From: Bacteroidaceae bacterium
Lineage (GTDB): Bacteria > Bacteroidota > Bacteroidia > Bacteroidales > Bacteroidaceae
Direction of reading: 5' to 3'
Assembly: GCA_017535725.1 (NCBI GenBank)
Contig: JAFXTO010000002.1
Location: forward strand, 21,752 to 85,751
Length of the DNA: 64,000 bases
Below, piece by piece: positions 3,201-29,900 of the stretch. A program made the position numbers and the translations under genes. Within the stretch, counting starts at the first letter, position 1. Each line of letters opens with the position of its first letter. The notes under the pieces were generated by a model. It ran no database searches, had not been told where the DNA came from, and saw only the letters and a program-made list of their open reading frames with translations.

Positions 3201-5550
3201 CTACCACCGCTTCAAAATGCTATGCCAACTGCTGGACATGCAGAACGAGTCCCTTTCACAGGGCACACGCATGGACGAATCTTCCCGTACCCTCCTCATG
3301 AAGCTGCTGGCAGGGTATGTCTCCACCCTGCTGTGTGACGACTGGCAGCAATACGCCCGAGACAAGTTCCTACATCAGTACCTGCCCGGAGACTGTCAGC
3401 TGGTACTTCAGCTCAGCCGTTGTGTCTCCAAAGGACTCTCGTGGAACGGATGGATGGACCTCCGACTGATGTCCATGCTCTGCGGCGAGGCAGCCTACGC
3501 CATCTGCAGCATCCTCTTTAGCCTCAACCGCGACCAAGCTATCGATCTGTTGCGCAATTCCCACATCGAAATCAGCTACGAGAACAAGGCCGTTACACCG
3601 CAGTTCTACGCCGGCCGCTTCAACGAATGGCGTGGGGAGAACTTCCGAGACCTCCTCATCCAGGTGCTGCGCAAGTCCGAGGAACTGGTGGAACGACCCC
3701 GTTTGAGCGACTGCGCTGACTTCTTCCGCCAACTGACCTTCGAAGCGTGGATGTCTCAGGATGACAGCGACCTCATCACCGCCCTGCGACAACAGTTGCC
3801 CATACTCATCGCAGCCTTCCTCAGTTCCCATACGGAAAATGCACGCACTATCATCAACGCCTACCAGTCTTTGACCGGATTCCTTACGGACAAGATCGAA
3901 GCCATCAGCCAGCGTCCTACTGTCTTCTCGGCCGTCGTCCTGGACCCGCTGCTTAAGAAGATTCTCTCCGAGGCACAACTTCTCTACGACCGCCTGCAAT
4001 TCGAGGCTCCCCTGCCCAAGGCTACCGTCATCTCCACCTCACTCGTAGGAACCGATGGTTCCTTCCTCACCGAAGTTCAGGTGTGCAACGCCTGTCGCAT
4101 GGCCACACCCATGAAAGACCTGCATCTCATCGTAGACCACATCAGCGGCGGAGTGCAAACGGAGAAACCAATCATCTACTCCGATATCAGCAAGGTAGAT
4201 GGCAAAGTTTATGGCGAGGAATATGTCATCTATACCATTCGGGCACGACTTACTGGCGATTGGCAGCAGCAGCGCTCAGGACAGTTGCAGCTCCGACTGC
4301 TTTTCACCAACGAGGAGGGCACCCACCTCGAAGCACCCTTCGAACTCCCCTTCCCCATACAGGAGTGGACAGAGCAGACACCCAAGTTGCCTGAAATCTA
4401 CGCAGCTGGTCCCAAGGTAGAAGACGAGAAAATGTTCTACGGACGTGATGACGATGTGGCTGCTGTCGTCTCTGCCGTCGGAGCCACCAAGAACAAGCCC
4501 CACTACTTCATCTTTGGACAGAAGCGCAGTGGTAAGTCCTCCCTGCTCTACCACATCCAGAAGAAACTCCTCGCCAACTACCACTTCATCAGTGTAGAGA
4601 TGGCTTTCGCGGACTTCACCATCCACCGCGAGGAGCACATCTACCGCCACATCTTCTCTGCCGTACAGACAACCCTTGACTGGGACTACGACATATCCGT
4701 GGAGGACTGGACCGACGCCGACGAAACTTCCACCGATTCCATGACCTTCAGCCAGTTCGTCAACAATCTTAAGCACATCAACAAGACCATTGAGGCATCG
4801 GAACAATGGCATGACTACCGCCTTGTCTTCTTCATCGACGAGTTCACCACCTCCTACGAGTGGTTCGTCAGAGGGAAAATTCCCAAGGAATTCTTCGGAC
4901 GTTGGAAGAGTCTACAGGACAAAGGACTCTTCAGTGCCGTACTCATCGGGCAGGATGTTTTCCGCTACATCGTTCGCGACCTCGTACACAACGACTTCGG
5001 CAGCCTGCTGAATTTGGAACTCACCTACCTAAGCCGCGAAGCTGCCATGCGTCTGGTCACTGACCCTGTCGTAGAAGCTAGCGGCAACGCTGACATTTAC
5101 GTGGGAAATGCCGTACAACGCATCCTCTATTACTCGGCCAATAGCGCCTACTACACCCAATGGATATGCAGTGAACTCATCAAATATGTCAACGCCAACC
5201 GCCTGCAACTCATCACGGAAGCCGACGTCGAGGAATGCGTACACCGCATGATGAACGACGATCCCAACGAATTGAAAGTGAAGTTCTCACCTTTGGAATA
5301 CTCTGGCCGAGACCCCAAGGAGTCATGGCAATTCCCGCGAGAGGAAACCGTAGCCGTTCTCCGACAGGTTGCTCTGGCAGAAATCAGCGACCCCGTGCGA
5401 GGCTGTCCACGGTGGAAGATACACTCCGAGAACGGACGTACCGACGAGTTCCTGGCTGACCTCGTGGAACGACACGTGCTCACCGTCGACAACGACAACT
5501 ACAAACTTATCGTCAAACTTTATCTTTTATATCATGGACTTAGCAAATAA
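274..5550 (+). CDS. Giant (1758 aa) multidomain P-loop NTPase with N-terminal Sm-like and repeated cold-shock/OB-like modules, an acidic linker, a helical/TPR-like middle and a C-terminal STAND/AAA-like ATPase
   Basis: Single uninterrupted 5.3-kb ORF. Walker A is GQKRSGKS at 4516-4539, preceded by FYGRDDD. Walker B-like RLVFFIDEF lies near 4819-4845. The N-terminus LQDGTDLQGQVVDVNPEGILL resembles the Hfq/Sm pattern. Four G-x-I..G-[FY]-I..FFH-type CSD-like segments are visible. Confidence 0.85.
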   Translation: MQNTSESLTSTLFRKGVLLKLQLQDGTDLQGQVVDVNPEGILLRDDEGNQTILTSDLLTHALYLYSGFPTQEAEVEVPVTVAGNGYIRSYNGKIGFTDNQFVIQPDSLLDATLRQDAQAFPASIVDREVLVVVEEGAVKKAYLLSVGALDAVLDKIAELAAMRKYSLARRFCELLSKQFPEDSDIANFLQKLQDATNSGKKVDFYQPIQSAEERQQAQDNEELLPMGRIFEMNNYKNGYIIDVRSHKKLFFHREQLLGELERKSTQELIGQPVVYSITRVNDKLQARSIMAPMQVDDAFQLAEVKYRQKDMTLTACDILRIILQQYEDDYIARTYSQWKAKREFLLWSIEALPDYQGQPVSLRRSIEVPGTSTKDVNLERKTDHTQMEMGFAPPECPKITFTSEEPEELIAIEPEPDGELPEAPQEESEEADKTIDETPSETELQPAWAEVRKEPEEVFEMPTEEEIAASEGAESVVQPNARLTYHYGDGILYDRQGEQYSFTLDDIIDDTLFEEVRNKNNNSDDYVREREVICQLYESGGRRARNICRPLTVHELLRMALDAYNTEDLDSRDLEYINGLIGNVLDYIPNNMAANRMYDVVRMRRDTDSETCYKAPAGVKPFGTISTINCEQKPQLKISDPHFRRPIPFQISEIIDRGYDHQCHGDELMYSIYTNEQGEPIARFVHRAKSESELFALAEDWAGKGEVVKAWAIMMNLLDLNPDNERAKLLAADYENHADEQGAPFVGEELKQGRQFNDLLAQARFCAERGELNKALELYAQELQDPREPDNRAYCIRESIQIYSKLYHDDPTDTALLADYRRFGDMYINSENGFANQTKKVLENIRVVIIYHQDMEEPDNLIRALRRLLPLLQNPTTWPRLNGDPQSIIAATRAELAWSLLRQGNNQEAEDMTRLSERSFDNEKARMCRAVIEERKVGTEKNIRWSRSFRPYNVYALDTCDCRVSVQQSREKKGLIYHRFKMLCQLLDMQNESLSQGTRMDESSRTLLMKLLAGYVSTLLCDDWQQYARDKFLHQYLPGDCQLVLQLSRCVSKGLSWNGWMDLRLMSMLCGEAAYAICSILFSLNRDQAIDLLRNSHIEISYENKAVTPQFYAGRFNEWRGENFRDLLIQVLRKSEELVERPRLSDCADFFRQLTFEAWMSQDDSDLITALRQQLPILIAAFLSSHTENARTIINAYQSLTGFLTDKIEAISQRPTVFSAVVLDPLLKKILSEAQLLYDRLQFEAPLPKATVISTSLVGTDGSFLTEVQVCNACRMATPMKDLHLIVDHISGGVQTEKPIIYSDISKVDGKVYGEEYVIYTIRARLTGDWQQQRSGQLQLRLLFTNEEGTHLEAPFELPFPIQEWTEQTPKLPEIYAAGPKVEDEKMFYGRDDDVAAVVSAVGATKNKPHYFIFGQKRSGKSSLLYHIQKKLLANYHFISVEMAFADFTIHREEHIYRHIFSAVQTTLDWDYDISVEDWTDADETSTDSMTFSQFVNNLKHINKTIEASEQWHDYRLVFFIDEFTTSYEWFVRGKIPKEFFGRWKSLQDKGLFSAVLIGQDVFRYIVRDLVHNDFGSLLNLELTYLSREAAMRLVTDPVVEASGNADIYVGNAVQRILYYSANSAYYTQWICSELIKYVNANRLQLITEADVEECVHRMMNDDPNELKVKFSPLEYSGRDPKESWQFPREETVAVLRQVALAEISDPVRGCPRWKIHSENGRTDEFLADLVERHVLTVDNDNYKLIVKLYLLYHGLSK

Positions 5551-6094
5551 AAAAAATATCATTTGGGCGCGTATTCGCACCCTCGGACCGCAGTCCATCG
5601 TACTGCCCCCCTCCACGGACGACCATCAGGTAGCCCTCGCCCTCATCAGCGAGCTGGAAACCGAGATGCAAGAGGAACATTTCGTTGCCGTCACCATTCC
5701 CTGTGAGAAGTACACCACCATTCTCGACTTTTGGAAAGCGCTGACCATGGAGGTGTGGAAAGCACTGTGCCCTGTCATGCAGCCTCAGCTACGCTCCACT
5801 ATGGAAAACAAAGTCCTCCGCATGGCCCAGAGCCAGCGCACCATCGACCTCTTCAATGGACTGCTGCATTTCCTGAAACATGTGAGGGAGAAACAAGGCT
5901 TGAAGGTGGTGCTTATCCTCGAGAAGTTCGCCGCGCTCGTGGAGCTACAGGACGAGTCCGATGCCATGAAAATACGCCAGTTGACAGACGTGATGGCGCT
6001 ACTGACCCTCTCGGAGAAACCCCTGGTGGAACTCGCCGACAAATACAAGAACGAATACTTCTGCAACCAGTTTGTGGCCTTGCAGGCATCCTGA
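5534..6094 (+). CDS. Small (186 aa) partner protein; NTPase-like layout without a Walker A lysine
   Basis: ATG at 5534 overlaps the stop of the giant gene by 17 nt. VVLILEKFAAL resembles a Walker B strand with the acidic residues lost. GPQSIVLPPSTDD sits where a P-loop would be. The upstream part of tracked ORF 5369.. lies inside the previous gene and was discarded. Confidence 0.65.
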   Translation: MDLANKKNIIWARIRTLGPQSIVLPPSTDDHQVALALISELETEMQEEHFVAVTIPCEKYTTILDFWKALTMEVWKALCPVMQPQLRSTMENKVLRMAQSQRTIDLFNGLLHFLKHVREKQGLKVVLILEKFAALVELQDESDAMKIRQLTDVMALLTLSEKPLVELADKYKNEYFCNQFVALQAS

Positions 6095-21563: not shown

Positions 21564-23456
21564 TTATTTCGGCATTTCGATGATGATACGGCAACCTTGT
21601 TGATAGTCGGCGTCGTAGATGAGGTTACCGCCGAGGCCGGTAACTTGGCGCTGGGCCAGCGGCAGTCCGAGTCCAAATCCCATGGACTCCTCGTTGGCCT
21701 GCGTGAAGGGCTGGGTGAGAATCTCGTGCCAATCCTTCTGAAGACCTGGGCCGGTATCTTCCACGATGAAGCAGACGGTGGACTCCGTCTCCATCAGGCG
21801 CAGGGTGATATGCTTGTCGTCGGAGAACTTGGCGGCGTTGTGCAGGAGCTCACCAATGGCACGATTGAGGAAGAAGTGGTTGGTCTGGATGCACACATCA
21901 TCGGACAGCAACGTCTCCAGATGGAATTCCAGGTTCGCATGGCACGTGTGCATGTACTCGATGACCTCGCGTGCAAGCTCGTTGCAGGGCAGTTTCGAGT
22001 TCCGCAGGTATTGCACCTTGTCCTCAGACTTCGGTCTGGAACTATCATAGAGCATCGTCACCCTTCGGTCCAGGCGGATGACATTGATGGCCATCGTGTC
22101 CTTGACGACCTGCAGCTCGCTGGGCGTCAGGTGGTGGCTCAGCAAGGTGTCTGTCATACCTTCGAGGATGTTCAGAGGCAAACGTATCTGTCGAAGGACG
22201 TGTTGTGAGAACCGGCGTTTTTCCTCAAACGATTTCTTGGCGGCTGCCATAGCTTGCTCCAGCTCCTCGTTTTCGACTCTGACTTGCTCCGATGTCTGCT
22301 TGACTTCCTTCATGTGTGCCACGATGGTTCGCTTCATCGCGATGAAAGCGTTCTGCAGGAGTGCCACCGCGTCCTTGCGGGGTGACAGGGGAATCACCAC
22401 ATCGTAGTTGCCGCTGGCAATCATCTGCATGTCATCCAGTAGCTGTTTGATGGGCTTGATATTCATTCGGACGACGCTGACCGTGATGAGCAGGATGAGC
22501 ATCAGGCCGACCACCACGACGATGATGGCGAGATACACCAGGTGATTATAGTCGCTCAGCACCTCATCGTCCAAGCATACCATGGCCAGACTCCATTGGG
22601 TCTCAGGCACAGGAGCATAGCAGACGTGATAGACCTCGTCGCCCCTCTTGACGTGCATGATGCCCTGTTTGCCAGCGGTCATCTCGCGTCCCAGCTTGAT
22701 GACATCCGGGTCCTGGATGGAGTCCGTGACCGAGAAGATGGTCCGACGGAACAGGAAGCTGGATTCCGGGTACACCAGATAGCGGCCATCGGTGCCCAGC
22801 AGCATGTAGTAGGCGCTGGGGAATGGATGTTCCGATGCCTCGATGATTTTCGACAAACGGCCAAAGGAGAAGTCCGTGGAGACAACACCCTGAATGCGAC
22901 CGCCTCCCGGACGCAAGGGGATGCAATAGGAAGCAATGGCATCATTGAGGCTGATGGTGCCCTGGTTGAAGTCGCTGAACGGATCCAGCCAGCTATCCTT
23001 GCCCGTACGCTTGGGTTCCTGATACCAATGCCGCTCGTAGTAGTCGTAATCCGACTCACGCGCGGTGAGGATGGTGTCACCGTCATTCACGGAATAGACC
23101 GAGAACCGAGAGCCATACTCCGGAAATACATCGGGTTCCGTACCCACCGAGCAACTGATTACGCTTTGGTTGATGGTGACGATGCGACGCGAGAGGGACT
23201 GCAGGGAGTCGGGATTGAAGTTAGCCTCCATCAGCCACACATTTGACTTGGCTGCGTTCTTGACGGCAGACATGTAGTTGACCACGCGCTGCATGGTGGT
23301 GTTCAGCGTGCTGTAGGAACGCTCCATGGTTTCCTTGTGCATGATTGCCTGCACGTGCTTGAAGAAGACGCCCAGCGAAACCATGAAGAGGGGTGCTGCC
23401 AGCAGTAAGATGGTAATACCTATCTTCCGGGCCAGACTTTTACGCGGCTTATCCAT
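21564..23456 (-). CDS. Sensor histidine kinase (Cache-like periplasmic domain, HAMP, DHp, HATPase_c)
   Basis: H-box-like FSQHVLRQIRLPLN. G-boxes DTGPGL and GFGLGLPLAQ. Two TM segments flank a roughly 270-aa extracytoplasmic domain. Confidence 0.85.
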   Translation of the reverse strand: MDKPRKSLARKIGITILLLAAPLFMVSLGVFFKHVQAIMHKETMERSYSTLNTTMQRVVNYMSAVKNAAKSNVWLMEANFNPDSLQSLSRRIVTINQSVISCSVGTEPDVFPEYGSRFSVYSVNDGDTILTARESDYDYYERHWYQEPKRTGKDSWLDPFSDFNQGTISLNDAIASYCIPLRPGGGRIQGVVSTDFSFGRLSKIIEASEHPFPSAYYMLLGTDGRYLVYPESSFLFRRTIFSVTDSIQDPDVIKLGREMTAGKQGIMHVKRGDEVYHVCYAPVPETQWSLAMVCLDDEVLSDYNHLVYLAIIVVVVGLMLILLITVSVVRMNIKPIKQLLDDMQMIASGNYDVVIPLSPRKDAVALLQNAFIAMKRTIVAHMKEVKQTSEQVRVENEELEQAMAAAKKSFEEKRRFSQHVLRQIRLPLNILEGMTDTLLSHHLTPSELQVVKDTMAINVIRLDRRVTMLYDSSRPKSEDKVQYLRNSKLPCNELAREVIEYMHTCHANLEFHLETLLSDDVCIQTNHFFLNRAIGELLHNAAKFSDDKHITLRLMETESTVCFIVEDTGPGLQKDWHEILTQPFTQANEESMGFGLGLPLAQRQVTGLGGNLIYDADYQQGCRIIIEMPK

Positions 23457-24945
23457 AATTATCCTCCTTTCTCACCTCGGGGGATGAGGTGTTCAACATT
23501 TGGTCAAGCAGTCCCAGGATGATCTTGCTCTCTCGCCTGATGGTATCTGCCTCGCGCCTTGCCTCTTCCGGGCTTAATTCGTCGTAATGCTCCAAGAGGT
23601 TGTTGACACACTTGCCGATAGCATCGGACGGGGCTATCATCTGGTTCGTCACATTGCGCAGGAAGTCCACACGCACGCGGCGGGAATCCTTGGCCTGATC
23701 ATTGAGCCTGCGCAGGGTCTCGCGGCGTTCGTTCAGTGTCTTCGTCAGTTGTTCTTCTTCTTCCACCTGGGTCAGCAACGTCTCCTGCATGATTCTGAAA
23801 TTCTGCTGGAACAGGCCGACCTCATCCATCCGTCGCGTCCGCGGTATCTCCTCATTGAAGTTGCCCTCCGCAATACTTTCGGCTATCTCCGTGAGTTCGC
23901 GAACGGGCCTCAGCTGTATCCGGAAGACTATACGGCAAAGTATCCAGAAGAGGAGCAGGGCACCAACGGCGATGGCCATCACGTGGTAAATGAGCTGACT
24001 GTAGGACTCTGTGACATCCACCGTCGGGTAAACGACGGCGATGCGCCAATCGTTCTTCGGGCGGGCACGGCCAGTCACTTCGTAGCGCACAAAAGGCTTG
24101 TAGAACAAACGGTACTCTTCACCTCCCACGTAGAAAAAGCTGTTGCCCGTACTGCCGGCCGCCATGGCTTGGGCACTTTCGAGCACAACGGAGGGTGCAT
24201 CCTCGGGAATAACGTCAAAAATCGTCTTTCCCTTGCGCTTCTCGGGGTCGGGATTTATGATGTATTTCCCGTCTTTGTCTATCAGTATGCAGTAGCTGCT
24301 GGATGACATCTTGGAAACATTCACCATCTGCGAGAGCAAGTCCACGGACACCTCCACGGCCATAACCCCTATGACTTGCTGGCTCCTGTCCATCATGGGC
24401 AGGCAGAAGAGGAGAGGCATTTCCTCGTCATTGGTCACGTGCCTGGACTGTCTCCAGCTCGACAAGCCCGTCTCCACGGCGTCCTTGTACCAATCCTGCT
24501 CCACATAGGGCAGGTCGCCCATCATTTCCGGCGTGAGGAGTTCCGGCGAGTCGTATTTCTTGCGCTGGACGTAGGCCATGAACTGTTCGCGGTCGGGATA
24601 ATAGTTGGGAACGAAGCTGATGGCACAACCCATAATATGCGGATTGCACACCACCAGCTCACGTGCGTAGGTCGTCATGTGGTCGGGCTGGTCGAGGTGC
24701 CCCAGCAGTTCCCAGTAGACGTTACCCACGGACTGCTCCACCCCGCGCAGGACGTTGTCCACCTGCAATTCCGAACCGCGCAATGTCTGTTCGGCATCTT
24801 GCACGGCCTCTTTCTTGAGTACCTCGCGCGAGAAGTAGAAGATTACCGCCAGCGAGACCACGAGCAGTAACATGACCTCGCAGATGGCCGTCGTATTGAG
24901 CTTGAGCGAGGGGGGGGAGAATGCGGCTTTGAAGAGTTTTCTCAT
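23449..24945 (-). CDS. Cache/HAMP sensor protein with a DHp-like helix lacking the phospho-acceptor His and lacking an ATPase domain
   Basis: VDFLRNVTNQMIAPSDAI occupies the H-box position with N in place of H. The protein ends soon after. 8-nt overlap with the downstream kinase gene. Confidence 0.8.
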   Translation of the reverse strand: MRKLFKAAFSPPSLKLNTTAICEVMLLLVVSLAVIFYFSREVLKKEAVQDAEQTLRGSELQVDNVLRGVEQSVGNVYWELLGHLDQPDHMTTYARELVVCNPHIMGCAISFVPNYYPDREQFMAYVQRKKYDSPELLTPEMMGDLPYVEQDWYKDAVETGLSSWRQSRHVTNDEEMPLLFCLPMMDRSQQVIGVMAVEVSVDLLSQMVNVSKMSSSSYCILIDKDGKYIINPDPEKRKGKTIFDVIPEDAPSVVLESAQAMAAGSTGNSFFYVGGEEYRLFYKPFVRYEVTGRARPKNDWRIAVVYPTVDVTESYSQLIYHVMAIAVGALLLFWILCRIVFRIQLRPVRELTEIAESIAEGNFNEEIPRTRRMDEVGLFQQNFRIMQETLLTQVEEEEQLTKTLNERRETLRRLNDQAKDSRRVRVDFLRNVTNQMIAPSDAIGKCVNNLLEHYDELSPEEARREADTIRRESKIILGLLDQMLNTSSPEVRKEDNYG

Positions 24946-24948
24946 ATC

Positions 24949-25995
24949 TTAATTTTCCATTGCGGAGGTGGCTTTCTTTGCAACCGTCCGTGTGACTAAC
25001 CATACTATCAGCATTCCTACGGCTGCGAGCAGCACGAAGACAAGGGCCAAAGGCAACATGGGCTTCAACAGGTCCTGCTTGGGCACGACGACAGCTATGG
25101 CCCATTCGATATTTTCTATCGGACCGTAGTACACCGTACAGGGCACGCCGCCCACATTCATGTCGAGCTCTCCACCTTTCTTCTGTGCCAGATTCAGGAG
25201 GGCATCATGATCGGTGATGGAAAACGACAGCTCCTCGGGGTGCGCGATACTGGTTCCGTCGATGTCGAGAATCAAGGAGTAGAAATCGAGGTCCTTGGAC
25301 ATCATCTGGTATTTATTGAGCTGTTGGTCGTGCTTGCTGGACTCATCCACCCACTCCAGTTCCTTGGCCAGCCACTCGAACTTCATGTCCGCTCCGCAGA
25401 CACACGCCAGGCGCCCGTTGCCGTCGTAGAGGGGCTTGATAAACGTCGTGTAGTGTCCGCTCATGCTGGTGCCATCGTAGTAATAATAAGGTTCGGACCA
25501 GAATGTCTCGCCAGTCTTCTTGGCTTGGACATACCACGGAGACTTGGTATAGTTGTGGCGTGCGGAGCCCACTTGGCGGTACTCAAAGCCCGTGACGTCG
25601 GGCTGGTAGATATACGGCTCAAACCACGTGCCCTGCTCCGGGAAATAGTCGAGTTCGAAAGCGGCAAAGTAACCTCGGGTGTCGCGGTTGAGGTTGGCCT
25701 TGCGCCTCAGGGCGGTAATCACGTTCTCCGGGGTGTCCATGTTCGCACTTACCTCGTCAAAGACATTCTGCGCACTCAACTCCACGCCTCGGACGACGCG
25801 GGAAACCTTCTCCGCAGAGACATTCTTAATGCCCATGTAGCGGGCGTAGGCTTCCGCCTTTACGGTCTGATAACAAAACCAAAAAGCCGTCGAAAGCGTG
25901 GCAATCAAGACCACGAAAACCGTAATCAGGACATTGCGTGTCAATCGGCTGTCCTGTATAGATGTTTCTTTCACTGGAATACTGGTTGTTTTCAC
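24949..25995 (-). CDS. Membrane-anchored Cache-domain protein without an output domain
   Basis: TM, roughly 260-aa extracytoplasmic aromatic-rich domain (SPWYVQAKKTGETFWSEPYYYYDG), TM, then stop. Confidence 0.8.
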   Translation of the reverse strand: MKTTSIPVKETSIQDSRLTRNVLITVFVVLIATLSTAFWFCYQTVKAEAYARYMGIKNVSAEKVSRVVRGVELSAQNVFDEVSANMDTPENVITALRRKANLNRDTRGYFAAFELDYFPEQGTWFEPYIYQPDVTGFEYRQVGSARHNYTKSPWYVQAKKTGETFWSEPYYYYDGTSMSGHYTTFIKPLYDGNGRLACVCGADMKFEWLAKELEWVDESSKHDQQLNKYQMMSKDLDFYSLILDIDGTSIAHPEELSFSITDHDALLNLAQKKGGELDMNVGGVPCTVYYGPIENIEWAIAVVVPKQDLLKPMLPLALVFVLLAAVGMLIVWLVTRTVAKKATSAMEN

Positions 25996-26028
25996 CTTTT
26001 TATTATATTTTATGCAAAATTTCGACTC

Positions 26029-27753
26029 TTAGGAGATGGGGTGCCCCAATGCCTCCTGATAGGTGCGGTTCTTTAACACCGCAGTCCGTGCGCTTTTGGG
26101 TAATTGACAGTAGAAGCGTGTGCCGCTGGTGTATTCCGCATCGTGCCAGATACGGCCGTGCAACAGACGGGTGATGGACTGGCAGATATTGAAGTTCATG
26201 CCCACATAGCGGACCTTGTTGCCCTTCTCGGAGAACATACCTATCACATTGGCAGCAGGCTTATTACCCAGTCCGGCGCTGGTGTCCGTGACGCTGAGCA
26301 GCACGTTGTCGCCATCCTCCTGGCAGAGCAACTTGATGTATCCCTTGTGGGTGAAACGCGCTGAGTAGTGCAGCAGGTGCGCCAGGAGTTTCCTCAGCGC
26401 CTCGGGCTCCGTCTGAATCTCAAAGTCATCGGGTAACGTGGTCTGGAACATCACATAGACACCCTTATAGCAATGAGGCTGTGTGGAATCGGCCACGCGG
26501 TTACACAGCTTATTGAGGTGTACGGATGCAGAGAGGTCCAGTTCTTCCTTGCTCTCGAAGAAGGACAGCTCGTTCAAGTCCGTCAGCGCACGCTCGGCGT
26601 CTTTCCGCTCGTAGGCCAACGACCTGTTGTCGTGCCGGAGCTGCCGGATGGTGCGACGTTCTATCCAGAGGAAGACCAGCAGGAGGACGATCAGCAGGCC
26701 CACAAAGATCGAGACCGTGAGTTTCTGCTGTCGTTCGCTCTCACTTTCCAGCTGATTCCGCTGCAACTGCAGGTGTGCCTCATTCATCTGTTCATAGTAG
26801 CTGGCAACCACGTCCTCGTGGGACTCCTGCATGATGGAATCGCTAATCCTCTTATATTCCTGCATGTACTGGTATGCCCGCGCGTCGTCGCCCATGCGAT
26901 GGTAGATGAGCGCCTTCCGCTCGTTGCGCCTATCCACCTTCAGTCGCTCCACAAGTTCCAGGGCCTTGTCATACTCTCCGTTGATGATATGATAGTCCAC
27001 TTCAACCTGAAGTCGCTGCATGCTGATTTCCTCGAGCGGCTTCAGCACCTTCAGTTCATGGCTGTAGCGATTGAACTCCGTCACATCATCCTTGCGGAAG
27101 GCCACCTCGCAGAGCTGGCACAAGGCTTTCTCCTTGCGAATGAGGAGCGTATTCGGTTCTTCCAGAATCTGGCGTGCGTACTTCGCACTGGCCTCGTCGT
27201 CATTCCGATGGACGGCTATCATCATGAGTTCCAGCAAGTCCTCTCCGGCACTCTCGAGGGGGAAACGTCTGTGGTGGTACTCCACCGCTTCTATGAAGGC
27301 CGCTTCGGCACCGCTATAGTCCTGCTTCTGCAGGAGCACCATGGCTTTCGTGTGCAGGTAGGCGTATTCACCGAACACGCTGGCATGTTCCTCGGCATAT
27401 TCCAGGATGCTCTCGGCAATATCCAGTCCCTCCTGATAGTTCTGCTGCGTGGCCTCAAAGACAGCCTGTGTGCCCCACGCCTTGTAGAACCTCCGCTCGT
27501 CGCCCACTTCCAGGCTGGCCGCTTTCAGTTCTTCGGTGATGCCGATGAACCGTTCCCGGTCCTTCGTGCCGAAAGAGGTCAGCATCTCTTCCTCCAAACG
27601 GACGACATCTTCCTGTTGCACGGCGCCCGCAGGCATACAGAAGAACAGCCCCGTAACGAGCAGCAGCAGAAAACGTCTCACGAGCTGCGGCAGAGATTGT
27701 CTTACGTGCTGCGGCAGAAATCGTCTTGTATTTATCTTGTCGAATAAAATCAT
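26029..27753 (-). CDS. TPR-repeat membrane protein with a C-terminal histidine-kinase-like ATPase domain (no clear H-box)
   Basis: Signal/TM, TPR-like helices, TM (LTVSIFVGLLIVLLLVFLWI), then an HATPase-like end (VTDTSAGLG..GMNFNICQSI). I could not find a HExxxPL-type motif. Confidence 0.78.
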   Translation of the reverse strand: MILFDKINTRRFLPQHVRQSLPQLVRRFLLLLVTGLFFCMPAGAVQQEDVVRLEEEMLTSFGTKDRERFIGITEELKAASLEVGDERRFYKAWGTQAVFEATQQNYQEGLDIAESILEYAEEHASVFGEYAYLHTKAMVLLQKQDYSGAEAAFIEAVEYHHRRFPLESAGEDLLELMMIAVHRNDDEASAKYARQILEEPNTLLIRKEKALCQLCEVAFRKDDVTEFNRYSHELKVLKPLEEISMQRLQVEVDYHIINGEYDKALELVERLKVDRRNERKALIYHRMGDDARAYQYMQEYKRISDSIMQESHEDVVASYYEQMNEAHLQLQRNQLESESERQQKLTVSIFVGLLIVLLLVFLWIERRTIRQLRHDNRSLAYERKDAERALTDLNELSFFESKEELDLSASVHLNKLCNRVADSTQPHCYKGVYVMFQTTLPDDFEIQTEPEALRKLLAHLLHYSARFTHKGYIKLLCQEDGDNVLLSVTDTSAGLGNKPAANVIGMFSEKGNKVRYVGMNFNICQSITRLLHGRIWHDAEYTSGTRFYCQLPKSARTAVLKNRTYQEALGHPIS

Positions 27754-27791
27754 TAAAACTTCAATTACTTTTCCCTATATCAAATAGTGCG

Positions 27792-27799
27792 CAAAGGTA
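27792..27799 (-). promoter_or_regulatory. -7 promoter element (TACCTTTG) for the sensor operon
   Basis: TAnnTTTG on the minus strand, 39-46 nt upstream of the ATG at 27753. Confidence 0.4.
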
Positions 27800-27985
27800 C
27801 AACTTTTTTTTCATATTACCGCACTTTTCACCATATATTTTCCACTTTTCCCACAAGTTCACCCCATTTTCTTCTCTTCCGCCGCATTTCAACTCTATTT
27901 TAACCGTCCGCTCGGCGCTTCCGCCGCTTGACCCTTCAAGAATCCTCGTCAAGCAAACCATCAATCTGCATTCTCTCCCGTCCTG

Positions 27986-28197
27986 CCTTGGTCAAGTCTG
28001 CGAGCGTGAGCAGACTCGCCTTGGTCAAAGTGGTCAAGTCTGCGATTAAGTGAGTGCAATGATGCTTGCATCAATTGCCGAACGTGAGCAGACTCGCCAT
28101 TGGTCACAATGGTCAAGTCTGCGATTTAGTGAGTGCAATGATGCTTGCTTCAATTGCCGAACGTGAGCAGACTCGCCATTGGTCAAAGTGGTCAAGG
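27986..28197. repeat. Tandem repeat, about 79-bp unit, about 2.5 copies
   Basis: cgtgagcagactcgcc recurs at 28005, 28083 and 28162. Units 28005-28082 and 28083-28161 are near identical. Eight TGGTCA motifs lie in direct orientation between 27989 and 28209. Confidence 0.85.
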
Positions 28198-28321
28198 TCA
28201 AAATGGTCAAAATCGATTTCTGCTTGTCAAAATCCGCCACTATATATAAATATTTATATTTATATATAGTGAGCCAAATGACCGAATCCAAAAACGAAAA
28301 TGACCATTTTGACCTTGACCA
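28189..28321. repeat. Perfect 21-bp inverted repeat flanking an AT-rich palindrome
   Basis: tggtcaaggtcaaaatggtca (28189-28209) is the exact reverse complement of 28301-28321. A second 17-bp inverted pair lies at 28101-28117 and 28314-28330. Confidence 0.9.
28238..28271. repeat. AT-rich palindrome (14-bp arms, 6-nt spacer)
   Basis: cactatatataaat-atttat-atttatatatagtg. Confidence 0.9.
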
Positions 28322-28478
28322 TTGTGACCACTTTCTTGATGGGGCATCCCTTTAGGGTGCATCTTCCCTGTCGTCGGATAATCCGGGGGTACTGCGCACC
28401 CCCGGTTACTGAGCGGAGACGCTTTTAGCGTCTTTTGCAGGATGCAAATCATTAGGGTGGGAAACTTTAGTTATTTAA

Positions 28479-28702
28479 CGTCAATCGTCAATCTGCGCCA
28501 ACCTATTCGTCAATCTAATCATAAATAATTCATGAAAAATTCACGGATAAATTCATGAAAAATTCGTGTAAAATACCTCATTTCGTCACTTCGTCACCGA
28601 TTTGTCACCTTCGTCACACTTTCCGTCACACTTATAAACAATTAATTGTCAATATAAATACGCATTAAAAATCCCCTTTTGTGACGAAATGACGGGATTT
28701 TT
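28479..28702. repeat. Cluster of short direct and inverted repeats (second module)
   Basis: CGTCAATC x3 (28479, 28486, 28508). AATTCATGAAAAATTC x2 (28527, 28550). (C/T)GTCAC x5 (28584-28629), with inverted GTGACG/TGACGG at 28681-28695. Palindrome acaattaattgt at 28638-28649. 9-bp arms aaaaatccc/gggattttt at 28667-28675 and 28694-28702. Confidence 0.85.
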
Positions 28703-28770
28703 CATCTTTTCGTGCCCGCGCGCGTATAGGGGCGCGAAACAAGGATGAACCACAAACAAGGTAGGGACGA

Positions 28771-28818
28771 GTTGACAAGTTGATGAGTTGACAAGTTGAC
28801 GAGTTGACGAGTTGACAA
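28771..28818. repeat. 8-bp tandem repeat GTTGA(C/T)(A/G)A x6
   Basis: Copies start at 28771, 28779, 28787, 28795, 28803 and 28811. Confidence 0.9.
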
Positions 28819-28906
28819 ACACATAAGGACGAAAACTCAAACACGTAAGGACGATATTACAAACACGTACGGACGATATTGCAAACTCGTACGGACGAGT
28901 GAATCG
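28819..28906. repeat. 22-bp tandem repeat x4 (iteron-like)
   Basis: acacataaggacgaaaactcaa / acacgtaaggacgatattacaa / acacgtacggacgatattgcaa / actcgtacggacgagtgaatcg, in exact 22-bp register. Confidence 0.85.
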
Positions 28907-28927
28907 TTTGACAACTGTCAAACGATT
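28902..28927. repeat. 26-bp palindrome (12-bp perfect arms, 2-nt spacer), operator-like
   Basis: aatcgtttgaca-ac-tgtcaaacgatt. Confidence 0.9.
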
Positions 28928-29060
28928 TGTGCGTCTGTATCTATTGGGGAATGATTATAGATTGATGAGCCAATCATTAAGGCAGAGAAGGGGATAAAAG
29001 AAAGCCTCTCTGCGAGGGGGACAGAGAGGCGAGACGTGAAGCAGACAGTTGAGTCTATCG

Positions 29061-29867
29061 TTATTGATTTACAAGTTGTTGGCAGAGGACTGGGTCGTTG
29101 GTGGTGATGTAATCCACACCCAGGTCGCGCATAGCTTCGATATCCTCAGCTTTATCCACGGTCCAGACGTTGACATTCATCCCCAGGTCGTGCGCCTCCT
29201 TCACCCATTCGGGATGCTTGCGGAAAACGTTGATGTGGTAGTCCAGCCCTGTCAGTCCCATGGCATGCAGTTCTGCCGGAGTACGGTCGCCGCTGAGATA
29301 AGCCACTTCGGCCTGTGGCGCCAGTTGGTGAATGGTCTCGCACGCTTCGATGGAGAAGGAAATGTACATGACGCGCTCCTCGAGTTTGCGGCTCCGGATG
29401 GCTTTCACGGCTGCTTCGGCGCACTCGCGGCTACGTTGAGGCTCGCGGTGGTTCTTCACCTCCACCACCAATTTTGTCGGGCTCTTGCTCTTCTTCAGAA
29501 TCTTCAGCAGGTCTTTCAGCTGCGGCATGGCCTCACCGTTTTTCAGACGTAGGCGCTTGCAGGCGGCATAGGTGGTGTCCTGAACGGTGACGCCCTTGTA
29601 GGTGGCGTCGTGGTTGACCATGATATGTCCGTCGCGCGTCAGCCAGATGTCTATCTCGGAACCGAAAATCCCGAGATCCAGCGCCCGTTGCAGGGAGGTC
29701 CTCGAGTTCTGAGCCGAGCCCTCGGGCTGCCAGTCACCTCGATGGGCTATGGTCTGGGTGCGGGGCAACGGCTGGGCGACGGCCACGCTACTCGTGGTCG
29801 CCACCAGCAGAAATATTGCGAAGAGACATGAAATGCACCTGCGAATCATCATCGAGACAACTTTCAA
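29061..29867 (-). CDS. Glycerophosphodiester phosphodiesterase (secreted)
   Basis: Signal peptide, then IAHRGDW..ENSRTSLQRALDLG..SEIDIWLTRDGHIMVNHD, the GDPD signature. Confidence 0.88.
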   Translation of the reverse strand: MKVVSMMIRRCISCLFAIFLLVATTSSVAVAQPLPRTQTIAHRGDWQPEGSAQNSRTSLQRALDLGIFGSEIDIWLTRDGHIMVNHDATYKGVTVQDTTYAACKRLRLKNGEAMPQLKDLLKILKKSKSPTKLVVEVKNHREPQRSRECAEAAVKAIRSRKLEERVMYISFSIEACETIHQLAPQAEVAYLSGDRTPAELHAMGLTGLDYHINVFRKHPEWVKEAHDLGMNVNVWTVDKAEDIEAMRDLGVDYITTNDPVLCQQLVNQ

Positions 29868-29900
29868 TACCTATTTATTCTATTGTTTTCGGCAACAAGG

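Follow-up and report, generated by a model that had tools for sequence, protein, structure and literature searches.

A candidate iteron-type initiator site: a dispersed ~150-bp dyad element in a Bacteroidaceae chromosome and in islands of rumen and gut Prevotellaceae

Short repeats crowd a gene-free region at positions 27960–28335 of a 64,000-nt stretch of DNA from a Bacteroidaceae bacterium (assembly GCA_017535725.1, contig JAFXTO010000002.1, positions 21,752 to 85,751; hereafter the window). Within this region, positions 28181–28331 hold a dyad element, namely two inverted sets of four to five short GTCA-core repeats, here TGGTCA with a period of 7–9 nt, placed around an AT-rich palindrome. 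This element very probably belongs to a dispersed family of ~150-bp dyads in rumen and gut Prevotellaceae. Elsewhere in the family, the dyad recurs at a fixed place in gene islands that encode a primase-helicase, and its anatomy matches that of published origins of Staphylococcus aureus pathogenicity islands (SaPIs). On this ground, the reading we favor, with a probability of roughly 0.5, is that the dyad is an iteron-type initiator site, meaning an origin or an origin-like element.

The family was delineated by scanning metagenomes with the 20-mer GGTCAAGGTCAAAATGGTCA, which is common to both arms. The scan returned at least 120 metagenome loci, mostly from rumen samples, and among the matches listed most loci share the same architecture. 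A nucleotide profile (nhmmer) built from 43 sequences, comprising 42 metagenome copies and the window copy, found the full dyad in 62 sequences among the matches listed, that is, in 61 metagenome loci and the window. The window matches model positions 38–237 with 171.8 bits (E 3e-51), a score that is partly circular because the window is one of the 43 training sequences. A conservation profile against 57–58 other copies is less affected by this circularity, and it delimits the element sharply: identity to the window base is 0.73–0.98 inside 28181–28331 and 0.18–0.24 outside. Copies are 148–154 bp long with sharp GGTCA...TGACC ends, and the window copy (149 bp) follows the same rule. The inner arms are unlike each other, which gives the element a defined orientation; the + strand of the window corresponds to the orientation of the family model. 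The palindrome cores comprise 39 distinct sequences, six of them perfect palindromes, with most of the others differing by insertions or deletions (indels). The palindrome ends ACTAT...ATAGT are common to all 39 cores and were themselves the criterion for extraction. Compensatory changes occur in the cores of, for example, loci L141 and L144 (L numbers denote individual loci). Palindrome symmetry is kept across diverged cores, which we count as a sign of functional constraint. The first-pass annotation of this DNA had named, as an alternative outcome, that the segment might belong to a dispersed family with copies at many loci, and this is what was found. Comparison with other DNA yielded many metagenome copies but no plasmid or phage DNA homologous to the spacer. 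Membership of a dispersed family does not rob the element of meaning, because the family shows a consistent gene context.

That context was first seen in metagenome loci. Of the 38 with sufficient flank, 12 have a divergent HU-HIG gene (PF18291) as the left neighbor of the dyad. Relative to this gene, the asymmetric inner arms take one orientation in 12 of 12 metagenome loci (gene within 700 nt) and in five of five islands; the nearly symmetric copy of L144, where HU-HIG is mirrored, is the sole exception. One-sided half arrays of the same repeats lie, in metagenome loci ascertained through the array, between the stop codon of a gene termed PRIHEL and the ATG of a gene termed SMALL. PRIHEL, present in 13 metagenome loci, encodes a protein of ~800 aa with BT4734-like AEP primase and DUF3987 domains, while SMALL encodes ~125 aa downstream of the half array and is followed by a Peptidase_M15_3 gene (M15). 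BT4734-like proteins are AEP primases, and DUF3987 has been predicted to act as a helicase in mobile elements (PMC5862659). The dyad and PRIHEL occur together in L035, L061, and L074, in the same orientation and 5–12 kb apart, and the cargo between them consists of restriction-modification, HNH, KilA-N, Bro/ANT, and HTH-M78 genes.

To remove ascertainment bias, PRIHEL homologs were fetched through the protein alone. All five islands fetched in this way with enough flank, L155 (Xylanibacter ruminicola), L159, L160, L162, and L164, show the same order: HU-HIG on the left, the dyad, a rightward promoter, cargo, two small genes, PRIHEL, the half array, and SMALL and/or M15. A GTCA-core array directly follows the PRIHEL stop codon in seven of seven distinct protein-fetched loci (L155, L156, L159, L161, L162, L163, and L164). 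In L162, arm A equals the half array save at two positions; in L155, an unusual iteron, GTGTCAYGAATGTCATTAAGC, is found in both the dyad and the half array; and the outer iterons of arm A in the window have the same sequence as the half array that follows PRIHEL's stop codon elsewhere. In the first-pass annotation, the convergence of direct repeats on an AT-rich dyad had been taken as the grammar of a replication origin, a transfer origin, or a recombinase site. The origin grammar holds up in the family context, because the same dyad lies elsewhere in islands with an AEP primase-DUF3987 helicase and iterons also follow the stop codon of that gene; among the transfer-origin and recombinase-site options, the invertible reading did not survive, as set out below. 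HU-HIG genes have been described as almost entirely lacking conserved linkages, and their products have been argued not to be sequence-specific factors (PMC5499826). Unlike that reported lack of linkage, HU-HIG stands consistently divergent, across the dyad, from the cargo operon ending in PRIHEL in the five islands and 12 metagenome loci. In the literature searched on DUF3987 and HU-HIG, no description of the dyad or of the island architecture was found.

The resemblance to SaPIs and other phage-inducible chromosomal islands (PICIs) is what chiefly recommends the initiator-site reading. SaPI Rep, a self-loading helicase, binds iterons of 5–6 nt through a C-terminal winged helix. In the SaPI origin, six to twelve iterons follow rep; the centre is AT-rich, and the iterons on its two sides point in opposite directions (PMC9371898). 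In the dyad, including the window copy, two opposed sets of short iterons likewise flank an AT-rich centre. The family also shares with SaPIs a chromosomal island setting, iterons directly 3' of the initiator gene (the one-sided array after PRIHEL), and a candidate primase-helicase initiator with a modeled C-terminal winged helix. The AlphaFold model of PRIHEL is usable only in its C-terminal domain, where the last 60 residues (pLDDT 73–87) are predicted to form a winged helix with the order helix-strand-helix-helix-strand-strand, and the local Foldseek matches of the C-terminus are all winged-helix DNA-binding domains. The comparisons establish that the element belongs to the family, where it begins and ends, which genes surround it, and how it varies among strains; from this we infer which protein binds and whether any replication takes place. 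The native dyad has the HU-HIG gene, read leftward, on one side and on the other a rightward operon whose cargo is variable and mostly defensive and which ends in PRIHEL. In the mechanism we propose, the repeats would be iterons for a sequence-specific protein, for which the C-terminal winged-helix domain of PRIHEL is the likeliest candidate. The protein would load from both sides and melt or extrude the AT palindrome, as happens at origins of the SaPI/PICI or P4 type, and it might also regulate the divergent promoters. The window copy would then have lost its island or never had one, and would be either a relic or a site acting in trans.

Several observations weigh against this reading. Homologs of HU-HIG, PRIHEL, SMALL, c7, c8, and M15 were not found in the 64-kb window, and no island gene lies within at least 28 kb on either side of the window copy, which is clearly a solo or orphan member of the family. 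The window contains no rep gene, so this copy does not lie 3' of rep as a SaPI origin does. In the islands, the complete dyad is found 4–12 kb upstream of PRIHEL, at the far end of the cargo, and the site that adjoins PRIHEL has neither the AT centre nor the inverted set, unlike SaPI. L159 and L164 have near-identical PRIHEL genes and the same GGTCA half array, yet the dyad is built from TTGTCA in the former and from TAGTCA in the latter. Covariation of dyad and half-array iterons within loci is accordingly mixed, with nothing constant but the GTCA core and the spacing. In islands L035, L061, L074, and L155–L164, neither an integrase nor an excisionase nor a packaging gene was seen. PRIHEL has no homolog on 72,556 plasmids and only one fragment of ~4 kb among phage records, a near-absence that we count against autonomous replication. 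The PRIHEL model is poor overall (pLDDT 48), and none of the Foldseek matches is significant (best E 0.3).

Further differences separate the islands from known satellites. The helicase of the family is DUF3987 and its primase an AEP of the BT4734 type, neither belonging to the SaPI Rep family. An integrase, repressor/antirepressor logic, and packaging genes are not established in the islands, and solo copies occur. The border integrase with att sites that marks PICIs, P4-like islands, and the minimalist phage-inducible chromosomal islands called PICMIs was not seen in the islands examined, and no tRNA gene lies beside the dyad in L035, L044, L046, L053, L057, L061, L065, L074, L079, or L132.

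P4 offers a second point of comparison. It is an integrase-bearing satellite with a known helper phage, and its alpha initiator combines a primase, a helicase, and a C-terminal winged-helix domain that binds the origin. The P4 ori carries octamer iterons in both orientations, and crr, a second cis site kilobases away, consists of ~120-bp direct repeats, each with iterons. The presence of two sites per island, and of tandem 79-bp units with two iterons each in the window, resembles crr, whereas the protein families, the iteron sequence, and the relative positions of the sites differ. Iteron plasmids are a third. In the origins of RK2, pPS10, F, and R6K, repeated initiator sites adjoin an AT-rich unwinding region (PMC4980987), as the repeats of the dyad do. 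However, the plasmid iterons are direct repeats of 17–22 bp, usually with DnaA boxes and an adjacent rep gene, whereas the dyad has a 6-nt core, inverted sets, and no DnaA-box cluster, and no plasmid homolog of the dyad DNA or of PRIHEL was found. Taken as a whole, the comparison is consistent with an iteron origin in the style of SaPI and P4, in a lineage and an arrangement that are new for it.

The same gene context can be read in another way, which constitutes the main rival. The dyad may be a purely regulatory array, an operator or insulator at which a regulator on the GTCA repeats controls the divergent HU-HIG and island promoters and no replication takes place; candidates for such a regulator are the ~125-aa SMALL, with its ATG located within the half array, or a paralog of HU-HIG. 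The half array would then block or tune the downstream SMALL and M15 peptidase genes. The dyad is always flanked by two outward-facing TAnnTTTG promoters, and 30 copies of an extended promoter-like motif facing left, CAAAG[GA]TA-N9-15-TTGCGGT, lie close to dyads, as against six elsewhere in 640 kb and none in 385 kb of background. The overlap of the half array with the start codon of the next gene and the HU-HIG neighbor in 12 of the 38 metagenome loci point in the same direction. Nevertheless, the dyad ends 50–110 nt from either -7 box without overlapping it, and an AT-only palindrome of 30 nt with conserved symmetry is unusual for an operator and typical of an unwinding element. HU-HIG proteins, as noted, have been argued not to be sequence-specific, and no DNA-binding domain is recognizable in SMALL by domain or sequence searches. 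We consider a purely regulatory role somewhat unlikely, though a serious contender.

The dispersal of the element raises the question of transposition. A non-autonomous element resembling a miniature inverted-repeat transposable element (MITE) or a repetitive extragenic palindrome (REP) would be a 150-bp unit with terminal inverted repeats of ~30 nt that is copied by a transposase in trans, and the window copy would be one insertion. The uniform length, the sharp ends, the terminal inverted repeats (arms of 30–40 nt), the AT-rich centre, and the solo copy in the window all suit such an element, as do the optional internal modules of variable number. The right flanks fall into 57 clusters among 61, giving at least 57 different contexts. 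Correia elements (Correia repeat enclosed elements, CREE), enterobacterial repetitive intergenic consensus (ERIC) sequences, and pneumococcal BOX elements are similarly imperfect palindromes of ~150 bp, uniform in size and dispersed between genes, and the internal modules of BOX elements, such as boxB, also vary in number. Unlike these elements, the dyad has no target duplication (none across 54 distinct flank pairs) and no TA target site, no copy was seen to have a transposase next to it, the arms are built as arrays from a short repeated motif, and the dyad keeps a fixed position and orientation within a conserved gene arrangement. Many apparently solo metagenome dyads are, moreover, probably islands cut by contig ends, because defense-type genes follow them; on their right, AAA_14/DUF4143, ATPase_2, M78 with MmeI-type restriction-modification, and STAND genes are often found. 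A mobile element of the MITE or REP kind is therefore quite an improbable account of the family.

In the window itself, the dyad can be described arm by arm. Arm A carries the outer iterons TGGTCAAAG TGGTCAAG GTCAAAA TGGTCAAAA on the + strand at 28180–28213, with a period of 7–9 nt, and an inner iteron, TTGTCAAAA, at 28224–28232, whose position is conserved across the family. The central palindrome, CACTATATATAAATAT-TT-ATATTTATATATAGTG, occupies 28238–28271 (16+2+16 in the repeat search) and is a candidate unwinding or cruciform centre. It had been described as an AT-only palindrome of 34 nt; the palindrome is present, but it ends in CAC...GTG and the AT-only core spans just 28241–28268. Arm B, recovered by the repeat search on the - strand at 28276–28330, consists of an inner iteron (28276–28284) and four outer TGACC iterons (28298–28330), and its mean identity to the family over 28301–28330 is 0.91. 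The palindrome is thus flanked by five + strand and five - strand GTCA-core repeats. As single-stranded DNA, 28170–28340 folds into one long hairpin (z = -10.3).

In the wider repeat array, all the features noted earlier were found where they had been placed. Eight TGGTCA motifs run in one direction, starting at 27989, 28022, 28031, 28101, 28110, 28180, 28189, and 28204, and four TGACC(A/T) motifs run in the opposite direction, starting at 28301, 28310, 28316, and 28325. For TGGTCAA, eight of the 17 sites of the 64-kb window fall inside 340 nt, a clustering far above chance. A 79-bp unit repeated about 2.5 times was recovered as described, with Tandem Repeats Finder giving a 79-bp period over 28001–28196 (2.5 copies, 93% matches, score 350). 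Together with the repeat search, it places two full units and the start of a third at 28021–28196 on the + strand, the two full 79-nt copies being 95% identical. Each unit comprises two TGGTCA iterons and a hairpin module of ~61 nt, the H module. A short H unit at 27989–28020 (+ strand) consists of one iteron and the outer hairpin GTCTGC...GCAGAC, without the 47-nt insert. The 79-bp units fold well on both strands (z = -4.4 and -6.6), and the inner stem of the H module shows compensatory changes among homologs. Such homologs lie directly beside dyads in L084, L048, and L074, and in L038 one lies ~0.8 kb from the dyad, past the HU-HIG gene; the junction of the H module with the arm in L084 is the same as in the window (...GAGCAGNCTCGCCATYTGGTCA).

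Comparison among strains clarifies how these pieces relate. Near-identical ENA and Logan contigs of the locus exist, many of which stop inside the 79-bp array, and five full assemblies of the locus were compared (L001/L022, L023, L020, L021, and the window). A sister strain, represented by the two independent assemblies L020 and L021 and 93.5–98% identical over aligned flanks, lacks both full 79-bp units and retains only the 32-nt short H unit and the dyad. Its outer inverted repeat is perfect over 30 nt (TGGTCACAATGGTCAAGGTCAAAATGGTCA), and its palindrome is 4 nt shorter with the symmetry still perfect. The 79-bp units are an optional accessory that varies in copy number by strain and adds iterons to arm A. 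At this locus, the dyad is an orphan copy beside a strain-variable array that breaks metagenome assemblies. The 21-bp and 17-bp perfect inverted repeats of the first-pass annotation are both present, the 17-nt pair at 28101–28117/28314–28330 and the 21-mer within a 40-nt inverted repeat of 85% identity at 28180–28219/28291–28330. They are not independent nested features, however, but pieces of one inverted repeat of ~30 nt, which is perfect in the sister strain and blurred here by the tandem units. Since the sister strain without the units shows a single perfect 30-nt repeat, the 17-bp pair with its 196-bp spacing reads as a by-product of the tandem units.

The same comparison bears on an invertible DNA switch, in which a recombinase would invert the segment between the 17- or 21-bp arms and so switch a neighboring gene. 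The 17-bp pair had been said to have the geometry of Bacteroidales invertible regions, and perfect inverted repeats 91–196 bp apart in a Bacteroidales genome do recall the intergenic invertible promoters of that order (fin-type, Mpi or Tsr), whose inverted repeats are 100–200 bp apart. In contrast to those promoters, the dyad has no internal promoter and no invertase nearby. Neither strand of 28118–28313 matches TANNTTTGC, and reading the sequence confirmed the earlier remark that TAnnTTTG is absent between the arms. The window contains no recombinase gene; the absence of rep, mob, or recombinase genes near the repeats had also been correctly reported. Orientation was identical in five of five full assemblies and, apart from the near-symmetric L144, is constant relative to an HU-HIG gene within 700 nt on the left. 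Finally, the segment is nearly palindromic, so inversion would alter little, and the 17-bp pair is itself an artifact of tandem duplication. A switch is essentially excluded.

What the window copy does at present is a separate matter from the nature of the element. The window DNA is chromosomal, because it contains a ribosomal-protein/elongation factor G (EF-G) cluster, superoxide dismutase, malate dehydrogenase, and other housekeeping genes. The repeats fill a 1.3-kb spacer (27754–29060) with a GC content of 42%, compared with ~55% in the flanks. The spacer is bounded on one side by the start of a four-gene sensor-kinase operon (- strand) and on the other by the end of a GDPD gene, whose stop codon is followed by a terminator-like hairpin. 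The kinase set is kept in relatives L030–L034 at 55–60% identity, in which the spacer is not present and the regions upstream of the operon measure only 17–190 nt; for this reason the spacer is lineage-specific. The organism is an uncultured member of the Prevotellaceae from a ruminant. The best GDPD matches among GTDB species representatives (72–81% identity) are not syntenic, and the orthologous GDPD loci of 16 GTDB genomes show no synteny and no TGGTCA clusters. A strict pattern derived from the 79-bp unit had no match in the genome collection. A chromosomal oriC was considered and rejected: no DnaA box (TTATCCACA-like, up to one mismatch) occurs in 27754–29060, there is no DnaA-box cluster, and GC skew and gene orientation do not indicate 28 kb.

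The copy may accordingly be a decaying relic without present function, the spacer being what is left, through neutral evolution by replication slippage, of at least one lost island or origin region. Its lineage-specificity and low GC content, the second degenerate dyad-like module and several strain-variable repeats within it, and the absence of island genes from the 64-kb window are all in keeping with decay. The dyad itself is intact, though, and scores as high as copies inside islands. Relative to the sister strain, which is 93.5% identical over 28158–29900, it differs by three substitutions and one symmetric 4-nt indel that leaves the palindrome perfect. Decay concerns the activity of the window copy and is compatible with the initiator-site reading of the element's nature. 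A relic is possible, though on balance doubtful; without island genes, the window copy may in any case be doing nothing at this locus.

The repeats extend beyond the reported 27960–28335, and the whole ~1-kb spacer is filled with GTCA-core repeats. The density of GTCA/TGAC 4-mers reaches 35 per kb at 27918–28917, whereas the window averages 8.7 (sd 3.6) and elsewhere peaks at 16. To the left, a Bacteroidetes-type -7 promoter box, TAcCTTTGC (27791–27799, - strand), faces the sensor kinase operon (ORF 26029–27753), and the window has no match to the extended leftward motif of the family at the corresponding position. To the right of the dyad lie three CGTCAAT repeats with the GTCA core (28478–28515, + strand) and then a second, degenerate dyad-like module (28578–28700), a likeness of grammar only, with five (C/T)GTCAC, an AT-rich centre (28630–28678) bearing ACAATTAATTGT, and two inverted GTGACG/TGACGG copies. 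Tandem Repeats Finder identified an 8-nt repeat, GACGAGTT/GACAAGTT, at 28766–28816, which reads (C/T)GTCAACT on the - strand and has 6.4 copies; about six copies here compare with about twelve in L001/L022/L023, or ~48 nt extra. A 22-nt tandem repeat (28815–28927, 3.8 copies) leads into the palindrome AATCGTTTGACAAC/TGTCAAACGATT (TTTGACAAC/TGTCAAA). None of these downstream repeats, including the module at 28578–28700, has a homolog among the fetched loci. The GTCA core common to the repeats across the spacer points to a single binding specificity or else to elements of this kind having turned over repeatedly here.

Some annotations near the dyad call for correction. A 70-aa open reading frame (ORF; 28240–28452, - strand), annotated as a gene in ENA (L001, L022), crosses half of the palindrome and arm B. 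It has no family match and is most likely spurious. ORFs that run through other dyads in a similar way also group into a protein family that is false. A protein family beside dyads that emerged from the initial gene clustering proved to consist of ORFs merely crossing dyad DNA and was dropped. A ~300-aa gene beside the dyad, considered as a partner protein, occurs only in L035 and L061 and is HNH-like cargo. No Rfam family or tRNA was found in the window or beside the other dyads checked. The four successive sensor-type genes (21564–27753, - strand) are of the dCache/HAMP/HATPase and TPR-like/HATPase types, and no response regulator was recognized near them. A 24-nt repeat in three copies (27656–27727) falls in the first 32 codons of an annotated 574-aa sensor kinase ORF. 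Its orthologs are 20–40 aa shorter and do not cover the repeat-bearing part, and for this reason the true start is probably downstream of the annotated one, which would place the repeat in the 5' leader.

Other observations concern the family and its islands. A single search returned more than 8,000 close PRIHEL relatives, and searches of PRIHEL, SMALL, c7, and c8 against NCBIfam, PHROGs, and PDB sequences gave nothing informative. The one fragment matched among phage records is L161, from the human gut (MT839699.1, "Bacteriophage sp.", human fecal virome, 4086 bp). It carries the C-terminal half of a PRIHEL gene followed by four GGTCATTAA iterons and one inverted copy, and DNA from such islands may therefore turn up in preparations of virus-like particles. 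A gene of 32–33 aa encoding DUF6486 adjoins HU-HIG in L155 and L162. Large (~1000-aa), repeat-rich surface-type proteins recur beside dyads (L038, L048, L051, L065, L107, and L147), and in L038 and L048 their genes begin at a distance of ~100–200 nt and point away from the dyad. A conserved 50-nt sequence, CCTATGGCAGGGTTAAGGTAAAATCCATTCAACTTTTTCTAGGGTAGTACA, adjoins either outer end of the dyad in eight loci (L035 1–100, reverse complement; L046 1–75; L057 7423–7494; L079 14586–14682; L044 ~3830–3890; L065; L132; and L053), and contigs often stop in it. It is neither a tRNA nor an Rfam family and may mark the terminus of an element of high copy number whose insertions fall beside dyads. Scans of IMG/VR with two iteron 21-mers gave one match each, both unrelated (a coding Gly-Gln repeat and a GC-rich contig). 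The GC-rich contig, L165, has in a short intergenic region at 5590–5660 three TGACCAAA followed by inverted TTTGTCA/TTTGCTCA, a similar grammar in a different lineage that may be coincidence.

Few unexplained features of Bacteroidales genomes are as common as DUF3987/"VirE" primase-helicase cassettes and expanded HU-HIG genes, and a conserved cis element here ties HU-HIG and PRIHEL together physically around variable, defense-rich cargo. The element has the grammar of an origin for a self-loading helicase. If it is such an origin, the islands can be tested as replicons or phage-responsive amplicons, in a phylum for which the literature searched contained no satellite-like replicon, and the iteron-initiator pair could be useful as a tool, for instance as a replication origin for Prevotella genetics. 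A bolder extension, which we regard as speculative and improbable, is that integrase-less chromosomal islands of rumen and gut Prevotellaceae, composed of HU-HIG, the dyad, variable defense cargo, and PRIHEL, have a dyad origin of the SaPI kind at which their own primase-helicase starts replication. This would amplify defense genes on demand, and solo dyads such as the window copy would be additional firing or titration sites of the same initiator at other places on the chromosome. Such replication might proceed in place, or it might follow excision between two direct repeats, a dyad arm and the half array. If this were true, the islands would represent a new class of replicative island in Bacteroidota. 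It would also give a concrete role to the enigmatic HU-HIG expansion and to the ubiquitous DUF3987/"VirE" cassettes.

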